This document shows positions 13,983-56,044 of a DNA stretch of 64,000 nt, in pieces (within the stretch, counting starts at the first letter, position 1; each line of letters starts with the position of its first letter). The notes under the pieces are model-generated. The model was not told the origin of the DNA and did not search any database. It was given only the letters and a program-made list of their open reading frames with translations. Position numbers and translations under genes: made by a program. Source of the DNA: Nitrospirota bacterium (GTDB lineage: Bacteria > Nitrospirota > UBA9217); NCBI GenBank assembly GCA_963754875.1, contig CAVWHO010000013.1, positions 64,001 to 128,000 on the forward strand, given 5' to 3'.

Positions 13983-14042
13983 ACAGAACACGCCGGTCAC
14001 GCGCCGCCTTTTGGCGCGTCGCTGTGGACCGGCAGGTTATCC
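13983..14042 (-). other. attC: attC site 6 (last in the array)
   Basis: Top strand GGATAAC ctgcc ggtCcac ... gtgacc ggcgt GTTCTGT; R'' is the exact complement of the cassette start GTTATCC. Confidence 0.9.
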
Positions 14043-14471
14043 TTTTGCTATTATGTATGCCTTTACGTCGTGCCGCATGAAGTAGACGAATATTAGAACA
14101 TTTACAAGGCAAAGAGAAATTACCAGTAAAGAGGGCAAGCTCAAAAACGGAATCGTTGAGGCAACTGGCAGGTAATAGTAAATTGTCGTGATCAAGCTGT
14201 ATAACACACAAATCAAAATTGATATTCGTCCAATCTCTTTTAGTTTAAAGATCCAAATGCCCGCAACGATTAACGCGAGGCTTTGTATGAGCCAGATCGT
14301 ATCAGAAATAGACGTATCGCCTTGGGCCTCGAACGCTGTCTTCAGCTGAGGTATGGCTGACATCAGAAATAGTATCGCACTGCCGATTATTCCAATGCAG
14401 CCTAGAAAAATGCAAACACCTCTAAACAAAGTAAAGAATTTCGGCCGAGTATTTGAAGTTGAAGGTTTCAT
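14037..14471 (-). CDS. Cassette 6: 4-TM hypothetical membrane protein
   Basis: Four hydrophobic segments; AGGAGG RBS; stop codon lies inside attC R''. Confidence 0.8.
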   Translation of the reverse strand: MKPSTSNTRPKFFTLFRGVCIFLGCIGIIGSAILFLMSAIPQLKTAFEAQGDTSISDTIWLIQSLALIVAGIWIFKLKEIGRISILICVLYSLITTIYYYLPVASTIPFLSLPSLLVISLCLVNVLIFVYFMRHDVKAYIIAKG

Positions 14472-14488: not shown

Positions 14489-14546
14489 GGATAACGCGCG
14501 GGTGAGCCGCGTGTTTTTCGCGGCGGTCTCGACCCGCTCGTTGGTT
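14489..14546 (-). other. attC: attC site 5
   Basis: AACCAAC gagcg ggtCgag ... ctcacc cgcgc GTTATCC. Confidence 0.9.
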
Positions 14547-14906
14547 CTAATCTCGGGATAAGCGTGCTGCTTTTTCTTTGCCTAACTCAGAAAGAACCCA
14601 CGTTCCGTAAGGTGAATGCGACGGATCAAGCAGTAGACCCTGTTTGACAAGCTTCCTCTTTGCCCAGTCTATATTATGTATCCAACGCTCCTTCGGTGGT
14701 CGCTGGCTCGTCAAAAGGGCATAGTCCGGCTCAGTAAATTGATTTGAATACGTACCATGAATTGTTTTGATTATTTCCTGTCTTTCCGCTTGAGCTCCTG
14801 CAAAGTGAATAAACGCAATAATTATTTCAAGAAATTCATCCTGCTCTATGCTCCCCAAAGACCCGCGACGAAGTCGTCTGCTTTTGAAATAATCAGGAAT
14901 TTGCAT
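14547..14906 (-). CDS. Cassette 5 gene B: stand-alone Mrr_N-like winged-helix protein
   Basis: ERWIHNIDWAKRKLVKQGLL...SPYGTWVLSELG resembles the Mrr N-terminal domain consensus (WAR.YL.KAGL...RG.W.LT..G). Confidence 0.7.
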   Translation of the reverse strand: MQIPDYFKSRRLRRGSLGSIEQDEFLEIIIAFIHFAGAQAERQEIIKTIHGTYSNQFTEPDYALLTSQRPPKERWIHNIDWAKRKLVKQGLLLDPSHSPYGTWVLSELGKEKAARLSRD

Positions 14907-14933
14907 TTATAACCTCCTGCCGGTCCTAGGATT

Positions 14934-15461
14934 TTAAAATTCATGGTTCGGGGCAAAGTCTTTCACCGATTCGAGAACGGGGTCGTAAAGCAATATCCAT
15001 AGATTCAGGTGCATTCTTAAGGAAGGACGAACGCGCTGCTTTAATTCACGGAGGTAGTGTGGTGAAGCGGGGAGTGCAAGACCAAGAAATAATTTCGCAT
15101 TTTTGACTTCTTCAGAATTGGAAAGTAATGTATAAGGGGGCAACTCGAAATATGTGACCACACTCGCTAGAGCACGATCAAAATTGTTTCTTTGAGTTTG
15201 ACTTGTTCCAGAACCGCTCCCTTTGCATTCGATACGCCACCATTCTTTTTCAGAAATACCCTCTATATCGGCACCTGAGGCGGAAAAGACAGGATTAATA
15301 CCGGCAGATGCAAATTTTTGTGAAATGGATGATAAAACTTCTGATGAATTTATACCTCTGCCGCGAGCTACTGAAAATCTGTATGGTATTACACCACGAT
15401 TAATCAGGAAATCGGTCGTCTTTTTCAGCACCGTCGATTCTTCAACGATAGGGAATGACAT
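14934..15461 (-). CDS. Cassette 5 gene A: PD-(D/E)XK restriction-like nuclease
   Basis: N-terminal helix with E, then GADIEG...WWRIECKG nuclease core. Confidence 0.65.
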   Translation of the reverse strand: MSFPIVEESTVLKKTTDFLINRGVIPYRFSVARGRGINSSEVLSSISQKFASAGINPVFSASGADIEGISEKEWWRIECKGSGSGTSQTQRNNFDRALASVVTYFELPPYTLLSNSEEVKNAKLFLGLALPASPHYLRELKQRVRPSLRMHLNLWILLYDPVLESVKDFAPNHEF

Positions 15462-15479: not shown

Positions 15480-15538
15480 AACTGACGCCGCCGTGAGGGG
15501 CGCGCCCTTTAGCGACCCTCTCGACGGCGTGGTTGGAA
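15480..15538 (-). other. attC: attC site 4 (non-canonical R' GTC)
   Basis: TTCCAAC cacgc cgtCgag ... ctcacg gcggc GTCAGTT. Confidence 0.85.
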
Positions 15539-15540
15539 TA

Positions 15541-15900
15541 TTATTTATTTTCTTTCGCTTGTAGTTTGACTATATGTTTATCAATAGCGGAGATATCTGA
15601 AAGCCAGTCACTTGGATTCTTTAACGCATTGTTGATTCTGTACTTGATAAATTCGTCCTTTGCTCGCAAATAGGATTTGAGCGCATTCGCATTTTCACCC
15701 ATCTTGGTATATGAACTTGCCATTTCTTTGTAAAATAACGGGATCACAATTCCAATAAATTTTGCGTCCAAATCCAATTGGATTATGTGATTGCAGCTTT
15801 TGATTACACCAGCCCAGTTCTTGTTCTTTTTACTTTTTCGTAAATCAGTTCTCAATTGTAGCCATTTTTTAAACAATTCATCATTCCAATCGGCTGACAA
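15541..15900 (-). CDS. Cassette 4 gene B: small helical TPR-like protein
   Basis: TTG start with GGAG RBS; YKEMASSYTKMGENANALKSYLRA is TPR-like. Confidence 0.6.
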   Translation of the reverse strand: MSADWNDELFKKWLQLRTDLRKSKKNKNWAGVIKSCNHIIQLDLDAKFIGIVIPLFYKEMASSYTKMGENANALKSYLRAKDEFIKYRINNALKNPSDWLSDISAIDKHIVKLQAKENK

Positions 15901-15911
15901 GGCATTCTCCC

Positions 15912-16865
15912 CTAAAGTTGAGTCTCTGTAATGGAATTAAAATGAATGAATATATGGTCAGATTCATTACGCACGTAGTCGTTTAATGCAAAATTGACCG
16001 CAGAATATCGCACCATTCCCGCGGCTGTACCATCGTGATAAATATTGGGGAAAGCTGGCAAAGTTAGCTGTTTGCCAATCAAATGACAATCTTTATTCGA
16101 AAAGGGAAGGGCAATTTGAAATGTAAAATTAGAAAAAGCTATAAAGAAGATCGTATATGGCAAGTCGGCTGTATCTACTTTTCTTTTTAAGAGTGTGGCC
16201 ATAATGAATGGGAATGGTTTGGGTCCGGGAGTAAAAGAGCATATCGTGCTAAATGGACCGGCCGCAGCAACAGGATCGTTTTGCGGATTTTCTATCAGAA
16301 GCCATTTTATCGTATCGGTGAAATATGGTAATTCACTATCGGGTAAAATAGATATGCCCATCTTGACGAGGCATTTAAAAACAGATCGTGGTATATATGG
16401 CTGGCGGTAGCCTCGTATTTTAACCCTTTTATTGTCCAGATCGAGTTCAATAAAGTTGTCATCAGGGTGATAAATTATTTCTATCCGATTATTGAGACTA
16501 TCTATCCGGGATTGTTGTGACTGAGATTTATAAGATGGCCTTTTCTTACCTTTAATTTGTGTGATTGCGCGTGCGAGAAGCGTGTACTTTCCCAAATGAT
16601 CTTCGATTGTTCTACTGAAACGTTCATTACAAATATCGCACTCGGAATTAGATATCAGTTCTCTATTACCTATCAATTCAGGGAACGCGTGTGCTTCCAG
16701 TCTAAATTTGCTCGGATCATTTTCACCACAAAAACGACATTGTCTTTTTGTTTTATCTCCTATATACAATTTGCGACCGGAATTCAAAGGCAGAGGTGCC
16801 AAATAATAATTCTCGTCATAGAACTTGATCATCTCCTGCATTTCCTTGGAAAATACATGGTCCAT
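15912..16865 (-). CDS. Cassette 4 gene A: HNH endonuclease (HNH_5-like)
   Basis: CRFC...AHAFPELIG...ECDICNERF; start set to the first ATG downstream of attC 3. Confidence 0.8.
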   Translation of the reverse strand: MDHVFSKEMQEMIKFYDENYYLAPLPLNSGRKLYIGDKTKRQCRFCGENDPSKFRLEAHAFPELIGNRELISNSECDICNERFSRTIEDHLGKYTLLARAITQIKGKKRPSYKSQSQQSRIDSLNNRIEIIYHPDDNFIELDLDNKRVKIRGYRQPYIPRSVFKCLVKMGISILPDSELPYFTDTIKWLLIENPQNDPVAAAGPFSTICSFTPGPKPFPFIMATLLKRKVDTADLPYTIFFIAFSNFTFQIALPFSNKDCHLIGKQLTLPAFPNIYHDGTAAGMVRYSAVNFALNDYVRNESDHIFIHFNSITETQL

Positions 16866-16898: not shown

Positions 16899-16956
16899 GT
16901 ACAACACGCGGGTGAGGAGCGTGCCTTCCGCGACTCACTCGACCCGCAGGTTGATT
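16899..16956 (-). other. attC: attC site 3
   Basis: AATCAAC ctgcg ggtCgag ... ctcacc cgcgt GTTGTAC. Confidence 0.88.
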
Positions 16957-17693
16957 TACGTTCCTTTTTTTGGTGTGCGTTCCTTAAAATATTCTTTCAC
17001 TGCATCGGCAAGTAAAGCGGCAACTTTATCAAGCGAAGCGTCATCTATTGCGAATTGTTGTTTGGAAGTAGATGAGATGCGAAAATCTATCAGAATAGTA
17101 GGCAACTGTGCGTTTTTGAGAAGATAATCCTTCCCCCTGCGCAATTCGACACAGTCGTGTGATGATTCTTTAAATTTCCGTGAAACAATATCGGCTAGAA
17201 ATATACTTTCTTCTATGATGTCATCAACTTTAAGATCATTATATATTTTGTCCAGGAGAGGGTCTAGTTCTTCTGCTTTGGCAGTCTTGCTGCTAGTTTG
17301 TGGTTTTCTGATTGGGATAGATGGAAACAATATTTGCACGCAATCCTTACTTGCTCTGCTTACCTTGAGCGCAAGGTGAATGTCGGCTCTCTTTGACTTT
17401 CCCTGAAATAGTCTGTCATCAAGAGTAACAAACTTATCTTCGGAACGAGTAAGATAAATTTTGAATTCAGCTACATTTAGCAAACCTTGAAGTTTTTGAG
17501 CTATCTCGAGGGTTATATTCTTGCCATATTTTTTCTGTGCGATAAAGGGACCGCTTTCCTTCCCTCCATACCACGGGTCAATAATGATTGTCTTTTGACT
17601 ATTCGAAGATGTGTCAGCGCTGCTGGCGGCTAGTGGCCCGAGGAGTTGAATACAAAAGATAAATATTATAAAGGCAGCCAATTTATGTTTCAT
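16956..17693 (-). CDS. Cassette 3: secreted Amidase_3-fold protein with degenerate active site
   Basis: Signal peptide; IIIDPWYGG, YLTRSEDKFVTLDDR and YLLKNAQLPTILID follow the AmiA/CwlC scaffold but lack the Zn ligands. Confidence 0.75.
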   Translation of the reverse strand: MKHKLAAFIIFIFCIQLLGPLAASSADTSSNSQKTIIIDPWYGGKESGPFIAQKKYGKNITLEIAQKLQGLLNVAEFKIYLTRSEDKFVTLDDRLFQGKSKRADIHLALKVSRASKDCVQILFPSIPIRKPQTSSKTAKAEELDPLLDKIYNDLKVDDIIEESIFLADIVSRKFKESSHDCVELRRGKDYLLKNAQLPTILIDFRISSTSKQQFAIDDASLDKVAALLADAVKEYFKERTPKKGT

Positions 17694-17705
17694 ATTGATC
17701 CTCAA

Positions 17706-17759
17706 AACTAACGCCGACGTGAACGGCGCGAAGCGACCGTTTCGACGGCGTGGTTAAAA
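17706..17759 (-). other. attC: attC site 2
   Basis: TTTTAAC cacgc cgtCgaa ... ttcacg tcggc GTTAGTT. Confidence 0.9.
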
Positions 17760-17780
17760 ATTCAGGGAGGATATATTCAA

Positions 17781-18047
17781 ATGGAAACATGGTACAAATA
17801 TTCATCATCAGCGTGGAGAAACGAACCGCACATTGTTCCGGTGCAGGTAGAAAAATCGTCTGCATCCTCTGTTTGGATCAATGGTAGGCCGGTGCGATTG
17901 CAGTCTACCTATGACAATTACTTCCGCACGTTCGATGAGGCGAAACAGTATGCAGTAAACAAATTCACAAAGCGAGTTGAACAACTCAAAGAACAGCTTT
18001 TGAGAGCAGAAGGTACGCTGAAAGAAGTACGGGATCAAACTATTTAA
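17781..18047 (+). CDS. Cassette 2: antisense-oriented 88-aa hypothetical protein (phage-like)
   Basis: GGGAGG RBS; ORF fills the interval between attC 2 and attC 1; C-terminal coiled coil. Confidence 0.7.
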   Translation: METWYKYSSSAWRNEPHIVPVQVEKSSASSVWINGRPVRLQSTYDNYFRTFDEAKQYAVNKFTKRVEQLKEQLLRAEGTLKEVRDQTI

Positions 18048-18096
18048 CGCGGCGGTCACAAGCCGCAGGCGGTCTTTGTGGACCGCCTTGTTATCT
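18042..18096 (-). other. attC: attC site 1
   Basis: AGATAAC aaggc ggtCcac ... gtgacc gccgc GTTAAAT. Confidence 0.88.
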
Positions 18097-18119
18097 TTGT
18101 TGTAGAAAGGAGAAGCACA

Positions 18120-18299
18120 ATGTCGGAATCAAAATATGAATCATTTGCATCCATCAGCGAACTAAAGCCGGGCATGATAGTTCGCGGAAAATCAACCGGA
18201 CAGGCGTTTATGGTCATTGTAAACTTTGGGGACCGAGTTACCGCCGTAAGTACGGCAGACGTAACGAATCCCGATGAGTGGGAAGTTTTAAAAAAATAA
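18120..18299 (+). CDS. Cassette 1: antisense-oriented 59-aa hypothetical protein (small beta-barrel-like)
   Basis: AAGGAG RBS; ELKPGMIVRGK resembles KOW/SH3-like starts; stop codon lies inside the attI core. Confidence 0.65.
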   Translation: MSESKYESFASISELKPGMIVRGKSTGQAFMVIVNFGDRVTAVSTADVTNPDEWEVLKK

Positions 18300-18312
18300 C
18301 AAGTAATTAGTC
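18294..18312 (-). other. attI: attI core site
   Basis: Top strand GACTAAT-TACTT-GTTATTT (7-5-7 geometry as in attI1 CCCTAAA-ACAAA-GTTAGGC); GTTATTT nearly complements R'' AGATAAC of attC 1. Confidence 0.75.
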
Positions 18313-18321
18313 TTTCGGGAT

Positions 18322-18352
18322 ACAGTAGCATAGAACGGGCAAGCCAGTCAAT
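18322..18352 (-). promoter_or_regulatory. Candidate cassette promoter Pc
   Basis: TTGACT-18 nt-TACTGT with extended TG, pointing into attI. Confidence 0.45.
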
Positions 18353-18368
18353 GAGTTTAAGAAAGAAC

Positions 18369-18397
18369 TTGACGTAACTTCCTGAAATCGTTATGCT
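18369..18397 (+). promoter_or_regulatory. Candidate integrase promoter Pint
   Basis: TTGACG-17 nt-TATGCT. Confidence 0.55.
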
Positions 18398-18488
18398 TGC
18401 ACAAAAAGACTAATATGCAAAATGACGGCAAGTTATATTATTGAAACTAATATGCAAAAACGGTATTCGCTATTTTGAGGAGAACTGC

Positions 18489-19916
18489 ATGCAGCCCATT
18501 CCAGAAGATATTCTGACGCCATTTAATGCAGTTTTGGCACAGAAGGCAGTCTCATCTTCGTTGCAAGACGAGTATCGGAAATGGCTTAAGTATTACCTTG
18601 ATTTCCGGGTAAAGTATCCGCCGCCGGACAGTAAATCCGAACAGGTCCGCTTGTTTATCGAAAAGATGCGCTCAAAGGGAAAGTCCGGAAAGGATTTGCA
18701 TCATGCCGCACATGCGTTGTCGCTCTTTTTCTCGCTGCAATCCCATAAAAAACAAGCTGCGTCGCATGCCGAACGCGTAAGAGAGGAACTCTCCGCTGGT
18801 ACCTTGACCGGCCCGATAACACGGCGCGATGGGGAAAAGCGCTCCCTTGAACGGACTGCTGGGAGGGATATCACCTCGGCAATCAGAGTTCCGACGGCCA
18901 ACCGCCCGGGCAGAAAGTACGACGAGTGGTGGTGTTTGGAGAAGACGAAATCCCCGGCCTGGGACGCGATCATCGATAAACTGGCAGGGGAGATCAAGAC
19001 GCGGCATTATTCACGGAAGACGCTCAAGGCCTATGCGGACTGGTCCCGTAAATTTCAGATCTATCTGAAGGACAAGCCGCCGGACGGCCTGTCTGCCGAA
19101 GACGTGAAGGCGTATCTCACGTACCTCGCGGTTCGATCCAAAGTGTCGGCATCGACCCAGAACCAGGCGTTCAATGCATTATTATTCCTGTTTCGGCATA
19201 TTCTGAAGAAGGATTTCGGAGATCACAAGGACACGCCGCGCGCGAAAAAATCGAGTTATATCCCCGTTGTTCTGACGAGAAAAGAGGTCGATGCAGTGAT
19301 CGGCCGGCTTCCGCCGCCCTATGATCTGGTGGTGAAGCTTCTGTACGGGTGCGGGCTCCGGCTGTTCGAATGCCTGAAACTCCGTGTGCAGAACTTCAAT
19401 TTCGACGAAGGGGTGCTTCTGATCATGGACGGCAAGGGGAAGAAGGCGCGCACGGTCCCAATTCCGCAGGTGATCGTGCAGGAACTGCTGGCGCAGCTTG
19501 AAGCGGTCAAGCAACTTCACGACCAGGACCTGAGGGCCGGATATTCGGGGGTGTTTCTCGACGACGCGCTGGATAAAAAATACAGGAATGCTTCGAAAGA
19601 TTTCATCTGGCAATGGTTCTTCCCGCAACAGTCCCTGACCTTCCTGCAGGAAACGAATGAGCTGCGGCGGTATCATTTAACCGACAAGGACGTGCAGGGG
19701 CCGCTATACACCGCGGTCCGGAAGGCGAAGCTCACGAAGCGCGTCACTTCCCATACCTTCCGCCATTCCTTTGCCACGCATCTCCTGCAGGCCAACTATG
19801 ATATCCGCACGATCCAGGAAATGCTTGGCCATGCCGATGTGAGAACGACGATGATCTATACGCACTGCGTGCCGAGCAGGACCGCAAAAGAGCGGAAAAG
19901 CCCGCTGGATTTTTGA
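18489..19916 (+). CDS. intI: Integron integrase with N-terminal extension
   Basis: Tyrosine recombinase residues (GLR, GKG.K.R, HTFRH, LGH, TMIYTH); SASTQNQAFNALLFL; integron-specific insert WQWFFP...RRYHL. Confidence 0.95.
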   Translation: MQPIPEDILTPFNAVLAQKAVSSSLQDEYRKWLKYYLDFRVKYPPPDSKSEQVRLFIEKMRSKGKSGKDLHHAAHALSLFFSLQSHKKQAASHAERVREELSAGTLTGPITRRDGEKRSLERTAGRDITSAIRVPTANRPGRKYDEWWCLEKTKSPAWDAIIDKLAGEIKTRHYSRKTLKAYADWSRKFQIYLKDKPPDGLSAEDVKAYLTYLAVRSKVSASTQNQAFNALLFLFRHILKKDFGDHKDTPRAKKSSYIPVVLTRKEVDAVIGRLPPPYDLVVKLLYGCGLRLFECLKLRVQNFNFDEGVLLIMDGKGKKARTVPIPQVIVQELLAQLEAVKQLHDQDLRAGYSGVFLDDALDKKYRNASKDFIWQWFFPQQSLTFLQETNELRRYHLTDKDVQGPLYTAVRKAKLTKRVTSHTFRHSFATHLLQANYDIRTIQEMLGHADVRTTMIYTHCVPSRTAKERKSPLDF

Positions 19917-36803: not shown

Positions 36804-37158
36804 CTAATACCAGGTGGGTGTCATCAATAAGGGGTCGCTGAAAAGCGACTCTGTTTTTTTTTTGCCGTCATTCCGGCGTTGCCGGGTATTTTGTATTATA
36901 CGGCAAGTGCCCATAAGAATATCAATGGTTATCCTGCATTTGATTTTACAACCTTTCCTCTTTCTGCTACACTGGGCTGGATTCCAGGTACAGAATCAAG
37001 GACGACTTCCCGTCTCGCATTACTGACGCAGCTTTTCCACGGGTATCTCGGACTCTCGTGGCATCCCTTTTACTAAACTCGCTAATACCGGAAATCCGAT
37101 ATTAGTTTTGCACAAAATGTTACGTCCGTTTCGATAACTGGTTGAATTTGGAGAGGAG

Positions 37159-37452
37159 ATGCCAATGGATCGACTTACGACAACTATCAAACGCCCCTGG
37201 CTTGCGGAAATCATTGCTGGCATCAAAAAAATAGAATATCGAGAGATCAAACCGTACTGGCGTGATCGCTTAGCTCAGGTGAAAATACCCTTTGAATTAA
37301 GATTAATCAATGGCATGCAGCGCCGCGCCCCCGAAGTCACTGTTCTCATCAACAAAGTGAAGAAAGATATACGCAATGGCGTCTATGAATTGCATATCCG
37401 TAAAGTTATCTCGTTCATGAACTGGGATCGTTCTCGTAGCGTGCGAAGGTAA
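37159..37452 (+). CDS. ASCH/PUA-domain protein
   Basis: IKRPWLAEIIAGIKKIEYR (GxKxxExR ASCH motif). Confidence 0.8.
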   Translation: MPMDRLTTTIKRPWLAEIIAGIKKIEYREIKPYWRDRLAQVKIPFELRLINGMQRRAPEVTVLINKVKKDIRNGVYELHIRKVISFMNWDRSRSVRR

Positions 37453-37507
37453 CGCTGGCTACAGCCCCAGCCATCAAATCACCTGGCCCGCCAGCGAAAA
37501 GCACCAC

Positions 37508-37536
37508 TTGACATTAATAAACAATTTGTTTATAAT
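37508..37536 (+). promoter_or_regulatory. higBA promoter with palindromic operator
   Basis: TTGACA-17-TATAAT containing ATAAACAA-T-TTGTTTAT. Confidence 0.8.
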
Positions 37537-37542
37537 CTTCCC

Positions 37543-37824
37543 ATGATTCAGTCATTTGCCTCCTCCGAAACGGAACGTTTTTTTGCCACTGGAAAATCTC
37601 GCCGCTTGCCGCAGGACATGCTGAAGCGAGCAGCAATGCGCTTGACGCAATTGGACGGAGCCGTGAGTCTCGACGATTTGCGCATCCCGACTTCCAACAA
37701 ACTGGAGGCGTTGGCTCATGACCGCGCCGGTCAATGGAGCATTCGCATTAACGATCAGTGGCGAGTATGTTTCCGATTTAAAAATGGTGACGCTTATGAC
37801 GTTGAAATCGTTGATTATCACTAA
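37543..37824 (+). CDS. higB: HigB toxin (RelE/ParE family)
   Basis: MIQSF...NKLEAL..DRAGQWSIRINDQWRVCF...VEIVDYH. Confidence 0.93.
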   Translation: MIQSFASSETERFFATGKSRRLPQDMLKRAAMRLTQLDGAVSLDDLRIPTSNKLEALAHDRAGQWSIRINDQWRVCFRFKNGDAYDVEIVDYH

Positions 37825-37837
37825 AGGAGACACAAAC

Positions 37838-38135
37838 ATGGTTAAGAATGGTTTGCCTGCAATTCATCCGGGAGAATTCCTGGCAGAAATCTTGGGAGAA
37901 ATGGGTATATCTCAGGCTGAGTTCGCGCGCACTATCGGGGTATCGCCGATGCGGATTTCGCATGTTATCAAAGGGCGATCGTCCGGTAACAGCGGAACTG
38001 GCATTGTTGTTCGGTCGTGCGTTTAACCAGACGCCGCAATACTGGCTCAATCTTCAGGCGTCTTACGATTTAAAAATCGCGAAGGCGAGTATCGGTAAGC
38101 GCCTTGCTGGTATACATGCCCTCGCACATGCCTAA
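37838..38135 (+). CDS. higA: HigA antitoxin (frameshift near 37975)
   Basis: IHPGEFL and HTH, then PVTAELALLF...YWLNLQASYDL in the next frame. Confidence 0.9.
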
Positions 38136-38162
38136 TCTTCTTCTAGCAATACTCGAAAATAA

Positions 38163-38221
38163 TTCCAACATGCGGGTCGTGTGGGTCGCTGAGAAGCGCG
38201 CCCTACACCCGCGCGTTGACT
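38163..38221 (+). other. attC: Solitary attC site
   Basis: TTCCAAC atgcg ggtCgtg ... tacacc cgcgc GTTGACT; shares GGGTCGCT...GCGCGCCC with attC 4. Confidence 0.8.
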
Positions 38222-50106: not shown

Positions 50107-50787
50107 ATGAGTAAACAGAAACAACGGATCATCCTGCTCGTGCTTTTTATCACCGCGATCATCCTCATCCGGTACTCGCCGTTCGGCGCGCTGTTTACCT
50201 TTGAGAATCTGAAGCAACACCGTGACTCCTTTTCACTCGACGTCCAGGGCCATTATTGGCTGTCTGTCGGCTGTTTTATCTCCCTCTACGTTCTCGTCAC
50301 CTCTCTGTCCCTGCCGGGCGCTGCAGTCCTGACCCTTGCGGGCGGATTTCTCTTCGGTACGCTTGCAGGCACAGTGTACGTGAACGTCGGCGCAACGACC
50401 GGAGCGTCCTTTGCATTTCTTTCTGCCCGTTATCTTTTGGGGAAGGGGCTGCAGGAAAGGTATCAGAGCCAGCTCAGTAAATTCAACGGCGAGATCGAGC
50501 GAAGCGGGACGAGCTATTTGCTGACGCTTCGCTTTATTCCGGTGTTTCCTTTTTTTCTCATTAATTTTCTTTCGGGTCTCACGACGATACCGCTCCGGAC
50601 GTTTATCTGGACCACGTCCCTCGGCATTATCCCGGGTACGGTCGTGTATGCCTTTGCAGGACAACAGATCGGTTCGCTCAATTCGCTATCGGAGATCCTG
50701 TCCAAAAAGGTGATCATTGCCTTTGTTGTGCTCGCGCTTTTTGCTCTGGTCCCGGCCATAGTGAATCGCACTAAAGAGACAGAATAA
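50107..50787 (+). CDS. TVP38/TMEM64 (DedA superfamily) membrane protein
   Basis: LSLPGAAVLTLAGGFLFG and LRFIPVFPF motifs. Confidence 0.92.
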   Translation: MSKQKQRIILLVLFITAIILIRYSPFGALFTFENLKQHRDSFSLDVQGHYWLSVGCFISLYVLVTSLSLPGAAVLTLAGGFLFGTLAGTVYVNVGATTGASFAFLSARYLLGKGLQERYQSQLSKFNGEIERSGTSYLLTLRFIPVFPFFLINFLSGLTTIPLRTFIWTTSLGIIPGTVVYAFAGQQIGSLNSLSEILSKKVIIAFVVLALFALVPAIVNRTKETE

Positions 50788-50823: not shown

Positions 50824-51459
50824 ATGGACACCAAAAAGCAGGTTACGGAAATTTTGAAACGGCTCGAAAAGGAGTACGCCGGTACGCCGCAGACAGCGCT
50901 GAATTTTTCGACGCCCTTCGAGCTCCTCGCAGCAACCATTCTTTCAGCGCAGACCACGGACGCGCAGGTAAATAAGGTGACCGCGAACCTGTTCAAGAAA
51001 TACCGCACCATCGCCGATTTCGCGAACACGACGCCGGAAAAACTGGCACAGGACGTATCTTCGGTCAACTTCTACAAAAATAAGGCAAAGAACATCAATA
51101 ATGCAGCGAAGATGGTCCTCGCGGAATTCGGCGGCACGGTCCCCCGGACCATGGAGGAACTGGTAAACCTGCCCGGCGTTGCGCGGAAAACTGCGAATAT
51201 CGTATTGTCCATCGCCTACGGCATCAATCAGGGCATCGCCGTTGACACCCACGTGAAGCGGCTTTCCCAGCGTCTCGGCTTGACGAAGTACGATGACCCG
51301 GTAAAGATCGAGAACGACCTCATAGCCGCAACTCCGCAGAAAGACTGGGGGAACCTCTCTCATGCGCTGATCTTCCACGGTAGAAAGATCTGCCAGGCCA
51401 AGAAGCCAAACCATGGCGAATGCGTTCTGTATGACATCTGCCCCTCCAAGAACATCTGA
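50824..51459 (+). CDS. nth: Endonuclease III
   Basis: LSAQTTD, LPGVARKTAN, AVDTH and a C-terminal Fe-S Cys cluster. Confidence 0.95.
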   Translation: MDTKKQVTEILKRLEKEYAGTPQTALNFSTPFELLAATILSAQTTDAQVNKVTANLFKKYRTIADFANTTPEKLAQDVSSVNFYKNKAKNINNAAKMVLAEFGGTVPRTMEELVNLPGVARKTANIVLSIAYGINQGIAVDTHVKRLSQRLGLTKYDDPVKIENDLIAATPQKDWGNLSHALIFHGRKICQAKKPNHGECVLYDICPSKNI

Positions 51460-54691: not shown

Positions 54692-56044
54692 ATGATAAAA
54701 TCTTCCATCCTCCTTATAGACGATGACGACAGCCTGCGCCGGGTCATGGAGTTCAGTCTGACGGAAGCGGGGTATCGCGTCCAGACCGCGTCGAGCGGCG
54801 AGGAGGGGCTGCGGCTCTTTGAGAAGAACACCTTTGACGCCGTCATTTCCGACATTACCATGCCCGGCATGGGCGGCATGGAGGTCCTGGGAAAGATCCA
54901 CGAGCAGGACGCCCACATTCCGGTGATCATGATAACCGCCTACGGCACGATCGAGAGCGCCGTGGATGCGATGAAACAGGGGGCCTTCGATTATATCACC
55001 AAGCCGTTCAACCGCGACGAACTCCGGCTGACACTCGACAAGGCGCTCAGGATGCGCAGGCTCGAGAAGGAAAACATCGAGCTCAGGTCCGAAGTCACGG
55101 ACCGCTATCGTTTTGACAGCATCATCGGCGGCAGCGAGAAAATCCGTGAAGTGCTCGACTTGGCCGGCCGCGTGGCCGCAAGCGATGCAACGGTCCTGAT
55201 CACGGGCGAGCGGGGGACCGGGAAGGAGCTTCTCGCGAAGGGCATCCATTTCAACAGTTCCCGCGCAAGGGGCCCCTTCGTAGCGGTCAACTGCGCGGCC
55301 ATTCCGGAAACGCTGATCGAGAGCGAGTTGTTCGGCCACGTGAAGGGGGCCTTTACCGGCGCAGGCAAGGACAAGGAAGGCAAGTTTGAACTTGCCGACG
55401 GGGGAACGATATTACTGGACGAGATCGGAGAGCTTCGCATCGATCTCCAGGCAAAAATACTCCGGGTCCTGCAGGAGCGGACCGTCGACCGGCTCGGCGA
55501 CAGGGCATCCATTCCCGTGGATGTCCGGGTCATTGCGTCGACGAACCTGGACATCGAACAGGCGATCAGGGAAGGCAAGTTCCGTGAGGACCTGTATGAT
55601 CGCATAAACGTTGTGGGCCTGAGAATGCCGCCTCTCCGCGAGCGCAGGGACGACATCCCGCTGCTCATACAGTATTTTCTCAAAAAATTCAACAAGGATG
55701 CATCGGCCGGCATCGAACAAGAAGCGATGGCCGTGCTCCTGTCATACGGCTGGCCCGGCAACGTGCGCGAACTGGAGAGCGTGATCGAGCGGGCATCGGT
55801 GCTGAAGCGCGGGAGCATGGTTACGTCCGACGACCTGCCGGAAAAACTCAGGAAAGAAAAGAACAGCGTCGAGAATATCCTGTTGAACCTGCCGGAGGAA
55901 GGCATCGCGCTCGAGGAACTGGAAAAGAGCCTCATCGTCAAGGCGCTCGAAAAGAACAAAGGCAACCAGACCCGTGCCGCCGAATATCTCGGCATCACGA
56001 GGCCGACACTCATTTACCGAATGGAAAAATTCGGGCTCAAATAG
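54692..56044 (+). CDS. Sigma54-dependent response regulator (NtrC/ZraR family)
   Basis: Receiver domain; GERGTGKE, GAFTGA and WPGNVREL; Fis-type HTH. Confidence 0.95.
   Translation: MIKSSILLIDDDDSLRRVMEFSLTEAGYRVQTASSGEEGLRLFEKNTFDAVISDITMPGMGGMEVLGKIHEQDAHIPVIMITAYGTIESAVDAMKQGAFDYITKPFNRDELRLTLDKALRMRRLEKENIELRSEVTDRYRFDSIIGGSEKIREVLDLAGRVAASDATVLITGERGTGKELLAKGIHFNSSRARGPFVAVNCAAIPETLIESELFGHVKGAFTGAGKDKEGKFELADGGTILLDEIGELRIDLQAKILRVLQERTVDRLGDRASIPVDVRVIASTNLDIEQAIREGKFREDLYDRINVVGLRMPPLRERRDDIPLLIQYFLKKFNKDASAGIEQEAMAVLLSYGWPGNVRELESVIERASVLKRGSMVTSDDLPEKLRKEKNSVENILLNLPEEGIALEELEKSLIVKALEKNKGNQTRAAEYLGITRPTLIYRMEKFGLK

Follow-up and report, generated by a model that had tools for sequence, protein, structure and literature searches.

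Backwards phage-type cassettes at the attI site of a Nitrospirota chromosomal integron

The origin of integron cassettes is a long-standing open question. Sedentary chromosomal integrons, as portrayed in the available part of Cury et al. (2016; PMC4889954), share with the locus described here an IntI gene divergent from the array, a G|TT crossover in attI, a predicted Pc-like promoter and attC sites of one polarity, and the sense cassettes of our locus likewise carry defence-like cargo (HNH, Mrr_N). They differ from it in the first two cassettes: here, the genes have no evident promoter, follow their attC on its bottom strand and end with the stop codon in the crossover core. On the phage side, Qi et al. 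(2023; PMC9892861) reported CALINs, attC sites without intI, in temperate and virulent phages, observed that IntI1 recombined five of six phage attC sites into attI1 in E. coli, and proposed that cassettes transfer from phage to bacterium. The available text of that article reports no gene polarity opposite to attC and calls two arrays typical in direction; it also gives no natural capture, whereas here the units lie in bacterial arrays and show homology bounded by crossovers.

Two further systems place a gene against Pc, the second of them also known from toxin-antitoxin cassettes, which carry their own promoter. A top-strand inverted insertion, which the available part of Nivina et al. (2016; PMC5027507) states was never observed in nature, likewise yields a gene that faces Pc and is not expressed from it; there, however, the attC is inverted too, whereas in our array only the gene points backwards inside its cassette and the attC keeps the correct orientation. 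The reversed, self-promoted symE/sRNA-Xcc1 cassettes of Xanthomonas (available part of 10.1101/2025.06.18.660453) also carry a gene opposite to Pc in a normal array, but they are outside Pc control, whereas our cassettes have room only for a ribosome-binding site (RBS) and hold phage accessory families. In a literature search that covered few subscription journals, Qi et al. was the only report found of phage attC arrays, and backwards phage-type cassettes in bacterial chromosomal integrons were not described; nor were they in the available parts of PMC8876359, PMC4889954, PMC5027507, 10.1101/2023.11.21.568050, 10.1101/2025.06.18.660453, 10.1101/2024.07.02.601686 and 10.64898/2026.03.17.712381. 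What we regard as new is the mark that phage-type cassettes leave on the host side, at attI.

The integron platform and its array

We analyzed a 64-kb stretch of DNA from a Nitrospirota bacterium (the window) and found that it contains a complete chromosomal integron. The intI gene (18489-19916, plus strand) encodes an N-terminally extended integron integrase of 475 aa with matches to TIGR02249, PF13495 and PF00589; its score against TIGR02249 (379 bits, cut-off 265) assigns it to the IntI-specific family. The attI site (18297-18315, minus strand) adjoins intI, with the G|TT crossover at 18300/18299. We placed the crossover at 18298-18300 because the AAC core there is invariant in all seven aligned platforms and because alternative first cassettes join close by: in three contigs from other samples, the platform is common from 18292-18297 rightwards and is followed by different first cassettes, whose RBS and ATG are on minus, the ordinary sense layout.

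A predicted Pc-like promoter (18322-18351, minus strand; TTGACT, 18-nt spacer, extended -10 TGnTACTGT) points into the array. The same pattern, run on four of the seven aligned platform regions, recovered Pc-like hexamers with a variable spacer of 17-18 nt in the window and at three other loci (L055, L029 and L045); the element was not picked up by a consensus promoter scan. On the opposite strand, a sigma70-like match (18369-18397, 9/12 positions) is a candidate PintI. It lies downstream of the cassette ORFs and therefore cannot transcribe them.

The array runs leftwards on the minus strand. Its six attC hairpins have R and L boxes and extrahelical bases in a single polarity, as expected of an integron, with the minus strand as top strand and the plus strand as bottom strand. 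Both attC1 (18042-18096) and attC2 (17706-17759) have normal polarity on the minus strand: read from the sequence, each carries an extrahelical G on the plus strand in the R''-side arm (G18081 in attC1; G17744, together with T17740, in attC2), at a position that matches the other four sites. These bases and the uniform polarity of all six sites bear out the original prediction that the minus strand is the attC top strand. With a structure supplied by us, 83.7% of cells were paired, compared to 63.9% for shuffled sequences. The minimum-energy fold of attC1 was two side hairpins and not the recombinogenic stem, and with such a fold, cassette 1 may be fixed where it is; of the two hairpins, the right one resembles a terminator on the plus strand and sits between ORF2 and ORF1.

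From cassette 3 onwards, all cassettes are normal. Cassette 3 (16899-17693, minus strand) consists of a sense N-acetylmuramoyl-L-alanine amidase gene (PF01520) and attC3 (16899-16956). It is followed, all on the minus strand, by a sense HNH_5 gene and a TPR-like gene with attC4 (15480-16865; attC4 at 15480-15538), a sense 175-aa ORF and an Mrr_N gene with attC5 (14489-15461; attC5 at 14489-14546), and a sense 144-aa membrane-protein ORF with attC6 (13983-14471; attC6 at 13983-14042), which ends the array.

Further integron-like features were seen elsewhere in the window and in other genomes. A second platform without integrase (window 37125-38221) comprises a core resembling attI near 37140, one sense ORF, a toxin-antitoxin pair that we take to be HigBA-like, and a single attC (38163-38221). 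At 50481-50550, an attC-like hairpin was detected by a heuristic scan and not by the covariance model. A near-identical attI-like core precedes arrays in several genomes (L039, L069, L070, L099 and L113), and at L099 no intI was seen within the fetched region. At L048 (780-840), an attC-like hairpin without an ORF lies directly at attI, before the first gene cassette.

Two cassettes with genes on the attC bottom strand

Cassettes 1 and 2 do not follow the canonical layout, in which the ORF is on the attC top strand and upstream of its own attC. ORF1 (59 aa; 18120-18299, plus strand; unit 18048-18299) has an AAGGAG RBS and ORF2 (88 aa; 17781-18047, plus strand; unit 17712-18047) has a GGAGG RBS. 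Both are antisense to the array and to Pc: each follows its attC and is encoded on the bottom strand of that site. Their TAA stops overlap AAC cores, that of attI for ORF1 (18298-18300) and that of attC1 for ORF2 (18046-18048). Read on the plus strand, each cassette is an attC, 21-23 nt with the RBS, an ATG, a short ORF, and a TAA belonging to the next AAC core. As a unit, cassette 2 is also present in a second sample, where its neighbors differ, and in three contigs from other samples, RBS-like sequence comes after attC1/attC2 arms on the bottom strand.

We then asked which strand is coding. A copy of ORF2 in another sample is 90% identical, and 20 of the 25 substitutions fall at codon position 3, which argues that ORF2 is coding on the plus strand. 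ORF1 differs from its phage copy at 19 of 177 nt, 14 of these being third positions, and 12 of the affected codons are synonymous and 5 non-synonymous; since an overlapping minus frame has its third positions at the same nucleotides, the coding case for ORF1 rests on its protein homologues and on the start of that frame, which falls inside the Pc-like element and lacks an RBS. None of the overlapping minus-strand ORFs (91, 83 and 60 aa) has a properly spaced RBS. Judged by these comparisons, ORF1 and ORF2 are real genes on the plus strand. The original prediction had described 59- and 88-aa RBS-supported plus-strand ORFs with TAA stops embedded in the attI and attC R' cores, and RBS, homologues, the codon-position substitutions in ORF2 and the positions of the stops all agree with it.

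The same prediction had noted no obvious internal promoter. A plus-strand promoter scan of 17600-18300 gave no match, in line with that claim, though this is weak evidence; over 17600-18600, the scan returned two sites against 1.8 expected by chance. Given the conservation of the Pc-like promoter in relatives, antisense transcription of ORF1 and ORF2 from Pc is likely.

Phage relatives and reverse cassettes in other arrays

By sequence comparison, both cassette proteins belong to phage families. ORF1 shares 92% amino acid identity with a protein of phages G001/G002 and has relatives at 20 viral and 57 metagenome loci; its INPHARED search gave a single weak match, and its Atlas matches scored below 0.9 and serve as leads only. 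ORF2 has 316 relatives among cluster representatives, and its top Atlas clusters are 94%, 60% and 100% viral. The predicted ORF2 structure (pLDDT 90) is a small beta-barrel with a long helix; its best structural matches are uncharacterized viral proteins (BFVD, TM 0.87), and no PDB entry matched at E≤0.001. A Pfam search returned no family for ORF1 or ORF2, and PHROGs gave nothing for ORF1 and only phrog_5415 for ORF2 (E=0.011). With ORF2, a single-query search of viral and metagenome contigs and INPHARED phages, and a search of genome contigs with alignment A6, gave no match.

G001 is an 83-kb tailed phage of temperate type (its record is 93% complete; the shorter record G002 belongs to the same phage). 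Among the 67 of its 131 predicted ORFs that were scanned are genes for a terminase, a major head protein, a portal/adaptor, an endolysin and a phage integrase; the integrase is prophage-type. No gene matched PF13495, and the sole PF00589 gene does not match TIGR02249, hence no integron integrase was found in a record that, at 93% completeness, could miss one. A covariance model built from 36 attC sites, 12 of them from G001, found 19 distinct attC sites in this phage (21 rows, two of them duplicates from overlapping loci). With at least two attC sites and no intI found, G001 fits the definition of a phage CALIN, like those of Qi et al. in the text of PMC9892861.

In G001, the attC bottom strand is the local coding strand at all 19 sites, including the seven outside the training set, and the core contains a TAA at 10 of the 19. 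The polarity flips together with gene direction at the divergent repressor region, and does not flip at the replication-initiation gene. A model-free scan likewise gave backwards polarity at 10/10 attC sites, while three shuffles yielded 0, 2 and 0 sites; our first heuristic attC scan was set aside as too strict. We also noticed that some G001 genes start inside the attC loop and translate the right arm (G001:C1:65407-65510, 51252-51311 and 55230-55690); among these regions, one has an attC-like left arm whose partner is seemingly two genes away.

The G001 homologue of ORF1 is 89% identical at the nucleotide level, and this identity ends at the attI AAC core, past which an attC-like arm follows in the phage and attI in the window. 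In the phage, it is the first gene of a plus-strand run leading to SbcC-like and RecT-like genes. Going by these sequences, G001 is not the direct donor: its copy of ORF1 has no attC upstream, the identity is 89%, and no ORF2 match was found in the phage. Its tRNA-Pro is 94-96% identical to that of three of four genomes from the host's own family, versus 85-91% in other families of the phylum, and one source names the G001 protein from an Anaerolineaceae MAG; a link between G001 and this host family is therefore suggested by the tRNA but not certain.

The original prediction that cassettes 1 and 2 may be captured phage genes is supported by these results, with the closest phage homologue in G001, accessory genes bounded by attC sites in backwards polarity, and homology that ends at the crossover. 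It had also proposed asking whether viral homologues are flanked by attC-like sites. Viral homologues were indeed found, but attC-like flanks, present in the G001 array, were rare elsewhere: none at 18 other viral ORF1 loci and 6 viral ORF2 loci, and matches at 3 of 65 further loci (E≤0.5; L156, L174 and L138, the last weak). Most homologues are plain phage genes. The exact attC2 motif was not found in viral contigs. At L174, a backwards attC lies ~220 nt downstream. At L156 (1359-1962), on a metagenome contig, an ORF1-family gene flanked by two long attC sites forms a normal sense cassette; given this member, the ORF1 family is packaged in both polarities.

Next, we scored attC sites in 60 regions fetched from relatives in the family and phylum. 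The sample comprised 212 sites, window included, drawn from three model scans (67 of 71 rows after dropping the four weakest, all 58, and all 87). Of these, a script classed 167 as sense, 32 as unclear and 13 as possibly reverse. Nine of the 13 passed review by eye, which also added L113:7312, for a final 10/212 reverse, a fraction biased upward by L096 and L098, which were fetched for matching phage. The four dropped (L064:12231, L069:709, L069:2438 and L070:15644) were antisense shadows or had weak starts, and reversed genes at L044:2674-2979 and L039:6816-7034 were left uncounted since their start is not beside an attC. One further unit, at L098, was missed by the model and found by BLAST. 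The resulting 11 reverse units occur in five genomes (G000, G007, G010, G056 and G074), have a median ORF of 74 aa and include DUF551 and Lar.

Some of these units match the phage attC included. The L098 unit (genome G074) is 85% identical, crossover to crossover and with its attC, to a Lar-like cassette of G001, and in the arrays of G007 and G010, reverse cassettes have attC sites with matches of 82% and 88% to sites of G001. Of 10 reverse-cassette attC sites, only 2 resemble those of G001 more than they do host sense sites, and neither of the two is attC1 or attC2. PHROG matches (E≤0.01) were obtained for 4 of 12 candidate reverse ORFs, and a sense HNH cassette also matched strongly; we rejected this measure, as it does not separate reverse from sense cassettes. 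Within the host's own genome (G000), contigs C1, C8, C15, C16, C20 and C21 hold 13 further attC matches (E≤0.01), 11 behind a sense ORF, two ambiguous and none reverse. No cassette-bearing prophage was seen in that genome, where 0/14 other classified attC sites are reverse, and a BLAST comparison of G001 with it gave only seven local matches.

Reverse cassettes tend to sit near attI. G074 has three in tandem directly at an attI-like site, and across 29 arrays with an attI-like motif, reverse units account for 8/73 sites at ranks 1-3 and 0/52 beyond. The statistics are weak: Fisher p=0.02 for all arrays, rising to p=0.04 when this array is left out and to p=0.08 when L096 is treated as distal, and the tandem units are not independent.

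Origin and meaning of the backwards cassettes

Starting from what was directly seen, namely anatomy, polarity, phage homology and crossover-bounded identity, we consider it probable that cassettes 1 and 2 came from a phage-side pool of reverse-polarity cassettes, were picked up by the host IntI, and are mostly silent passengers. A unit of this pool would read, entirely on the bottom strand of its attC, attC, RBS and then a small gene that contributes the next AAC core through its stop codon. A phage without an integron integrase would rely on the host IntI to excise and shuffle its units. Upon infection or induction (the SOS response co-induces intI and prophages), excised units, being good attC substrates, could also be inserted at attI of the host through the usual reaction between attI and the attC bottom strand. 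With its direction reversed relative to the attC, the gene would land facing Pc and stay untranslated, and Pc read-through to the sense cassettes would make antisense RNA as a by-product. Captured units would then be mostly recent, silent passengers, and cassettes 1 and 2 may have arrived in one event.

A different route would start from plain phage genes. Some cassette-making process in the cell could give such genes, from RBS to stop, an attC in either orientation, with host and phage both drawing on the by-products, in which case the flow need not run from phage array to host. That the G001 homologue has no upstream attC and homology begins near the RBS, that most homologues are plain phage genes, that attC1 and attC2 are more host-like than G001-like, and that the ORF1 family occurs as a sense cassette at L156 would all fit this route. 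It leaves unexplained, however, the strict 19/19 polarity in the phage and the whole-unit match in G074 with its attC, and it sits poorly with the three contigs of other samples in which attC1/attC2 arms precede bottom-strand RBS-like sequence. We consider it unlikely.

Capture from the phage pool leaves the antisense RNA as a by-product; alternatively, that RNA might be why the units are kept. The Pc transcript would pair with phage early mRNA over the RBS, the start and the whole ORF, and would block translation or invite RNase III, lowering phage yield. The Pc-like promoter is conserved on four platforms, the units occupy the strongest-expressed positions, and the G001 homologue opens the plus-strand run towards the SbcC-like and RecT-like genes. 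The predicted duplex is strong (-292 kcal/mol; self -397; longest perfect run 35 nt), but any antisense copy predicts a strong duplex, and identity to the known phage is only 89%. Neutral recent captures equally predict a proximal position. The genes are small, dispensable-looking accessory genes, distal retention is nil in attI-anchored arrays (0/52), and a member of the ORF1 family is also a normal sense cassette at L156. The idea of the original prediction that the cassettes could silence phage homologues thus found no support. We therefore regard selection for antisense memory as quite improbable, and we give equally little credence to its extension, in which the integrons of this host family would be a crude adaptive immune memory, with phage early genes left at attI and Pc antisense RNA directed against the early operon, newest infection first.

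It is very unlikely, in our estimate, that the cassettes are instead expressed from a plus-strand promoter, their own or one in cassette 3, to make proteins useful to the host, as with symE/sRNA-Xcc1 in Xanthomonas. The ORFs and RBSs are intact, but recent captures are expected to be intact anyway; L156 suggests that the ORF1 family can persist as an expressed cassette, and in-silico prediction misses cassette promoters (available part of 10.1101/2023.11.21.568050). Against this, the gap between attC and ATG is only 21-23 nt, the scan of 17600-18300 gave no plus-strand promoter match, and a terminator-like hairpin on the plus strand separates ORF2 from ORF1. Lastly, ordinary cassettes inserted upside down by top-strand recombination would show the same mirror position of RBS and stop, and low-frequency events are possible (available part of PMC5027507), but such an insertion would flip the attC too, and attC1 and attC2 have the polarity of the four other sites, which leaves this explanation with next to no probability.

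Flow of cassettes from phage to chromosome has been proposed from laboratory assays, and we found no natural example in the literature. If the cassettes came from a phage pool, backwards polarity would be a tag for phage-derived cassettes in bacterial arrays, making this flow countable across all genomes, and phage relics may be among the cassettes now scored as empty or reversed. It would also imply that phages lacking an integrase use the host IntI for shuffling their accessory genes, Lar-like anti-restriction genes among them. Antisense immunity is directly testable from this setup; were the memory reading true, the opposite cassette polarities of host and phage would have arisen from this conflict, with the cassettes of one side silent or antisense in an array of the other. 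Overall, our analyses point to cassette traffic from viruses into bacterial chromosomes.
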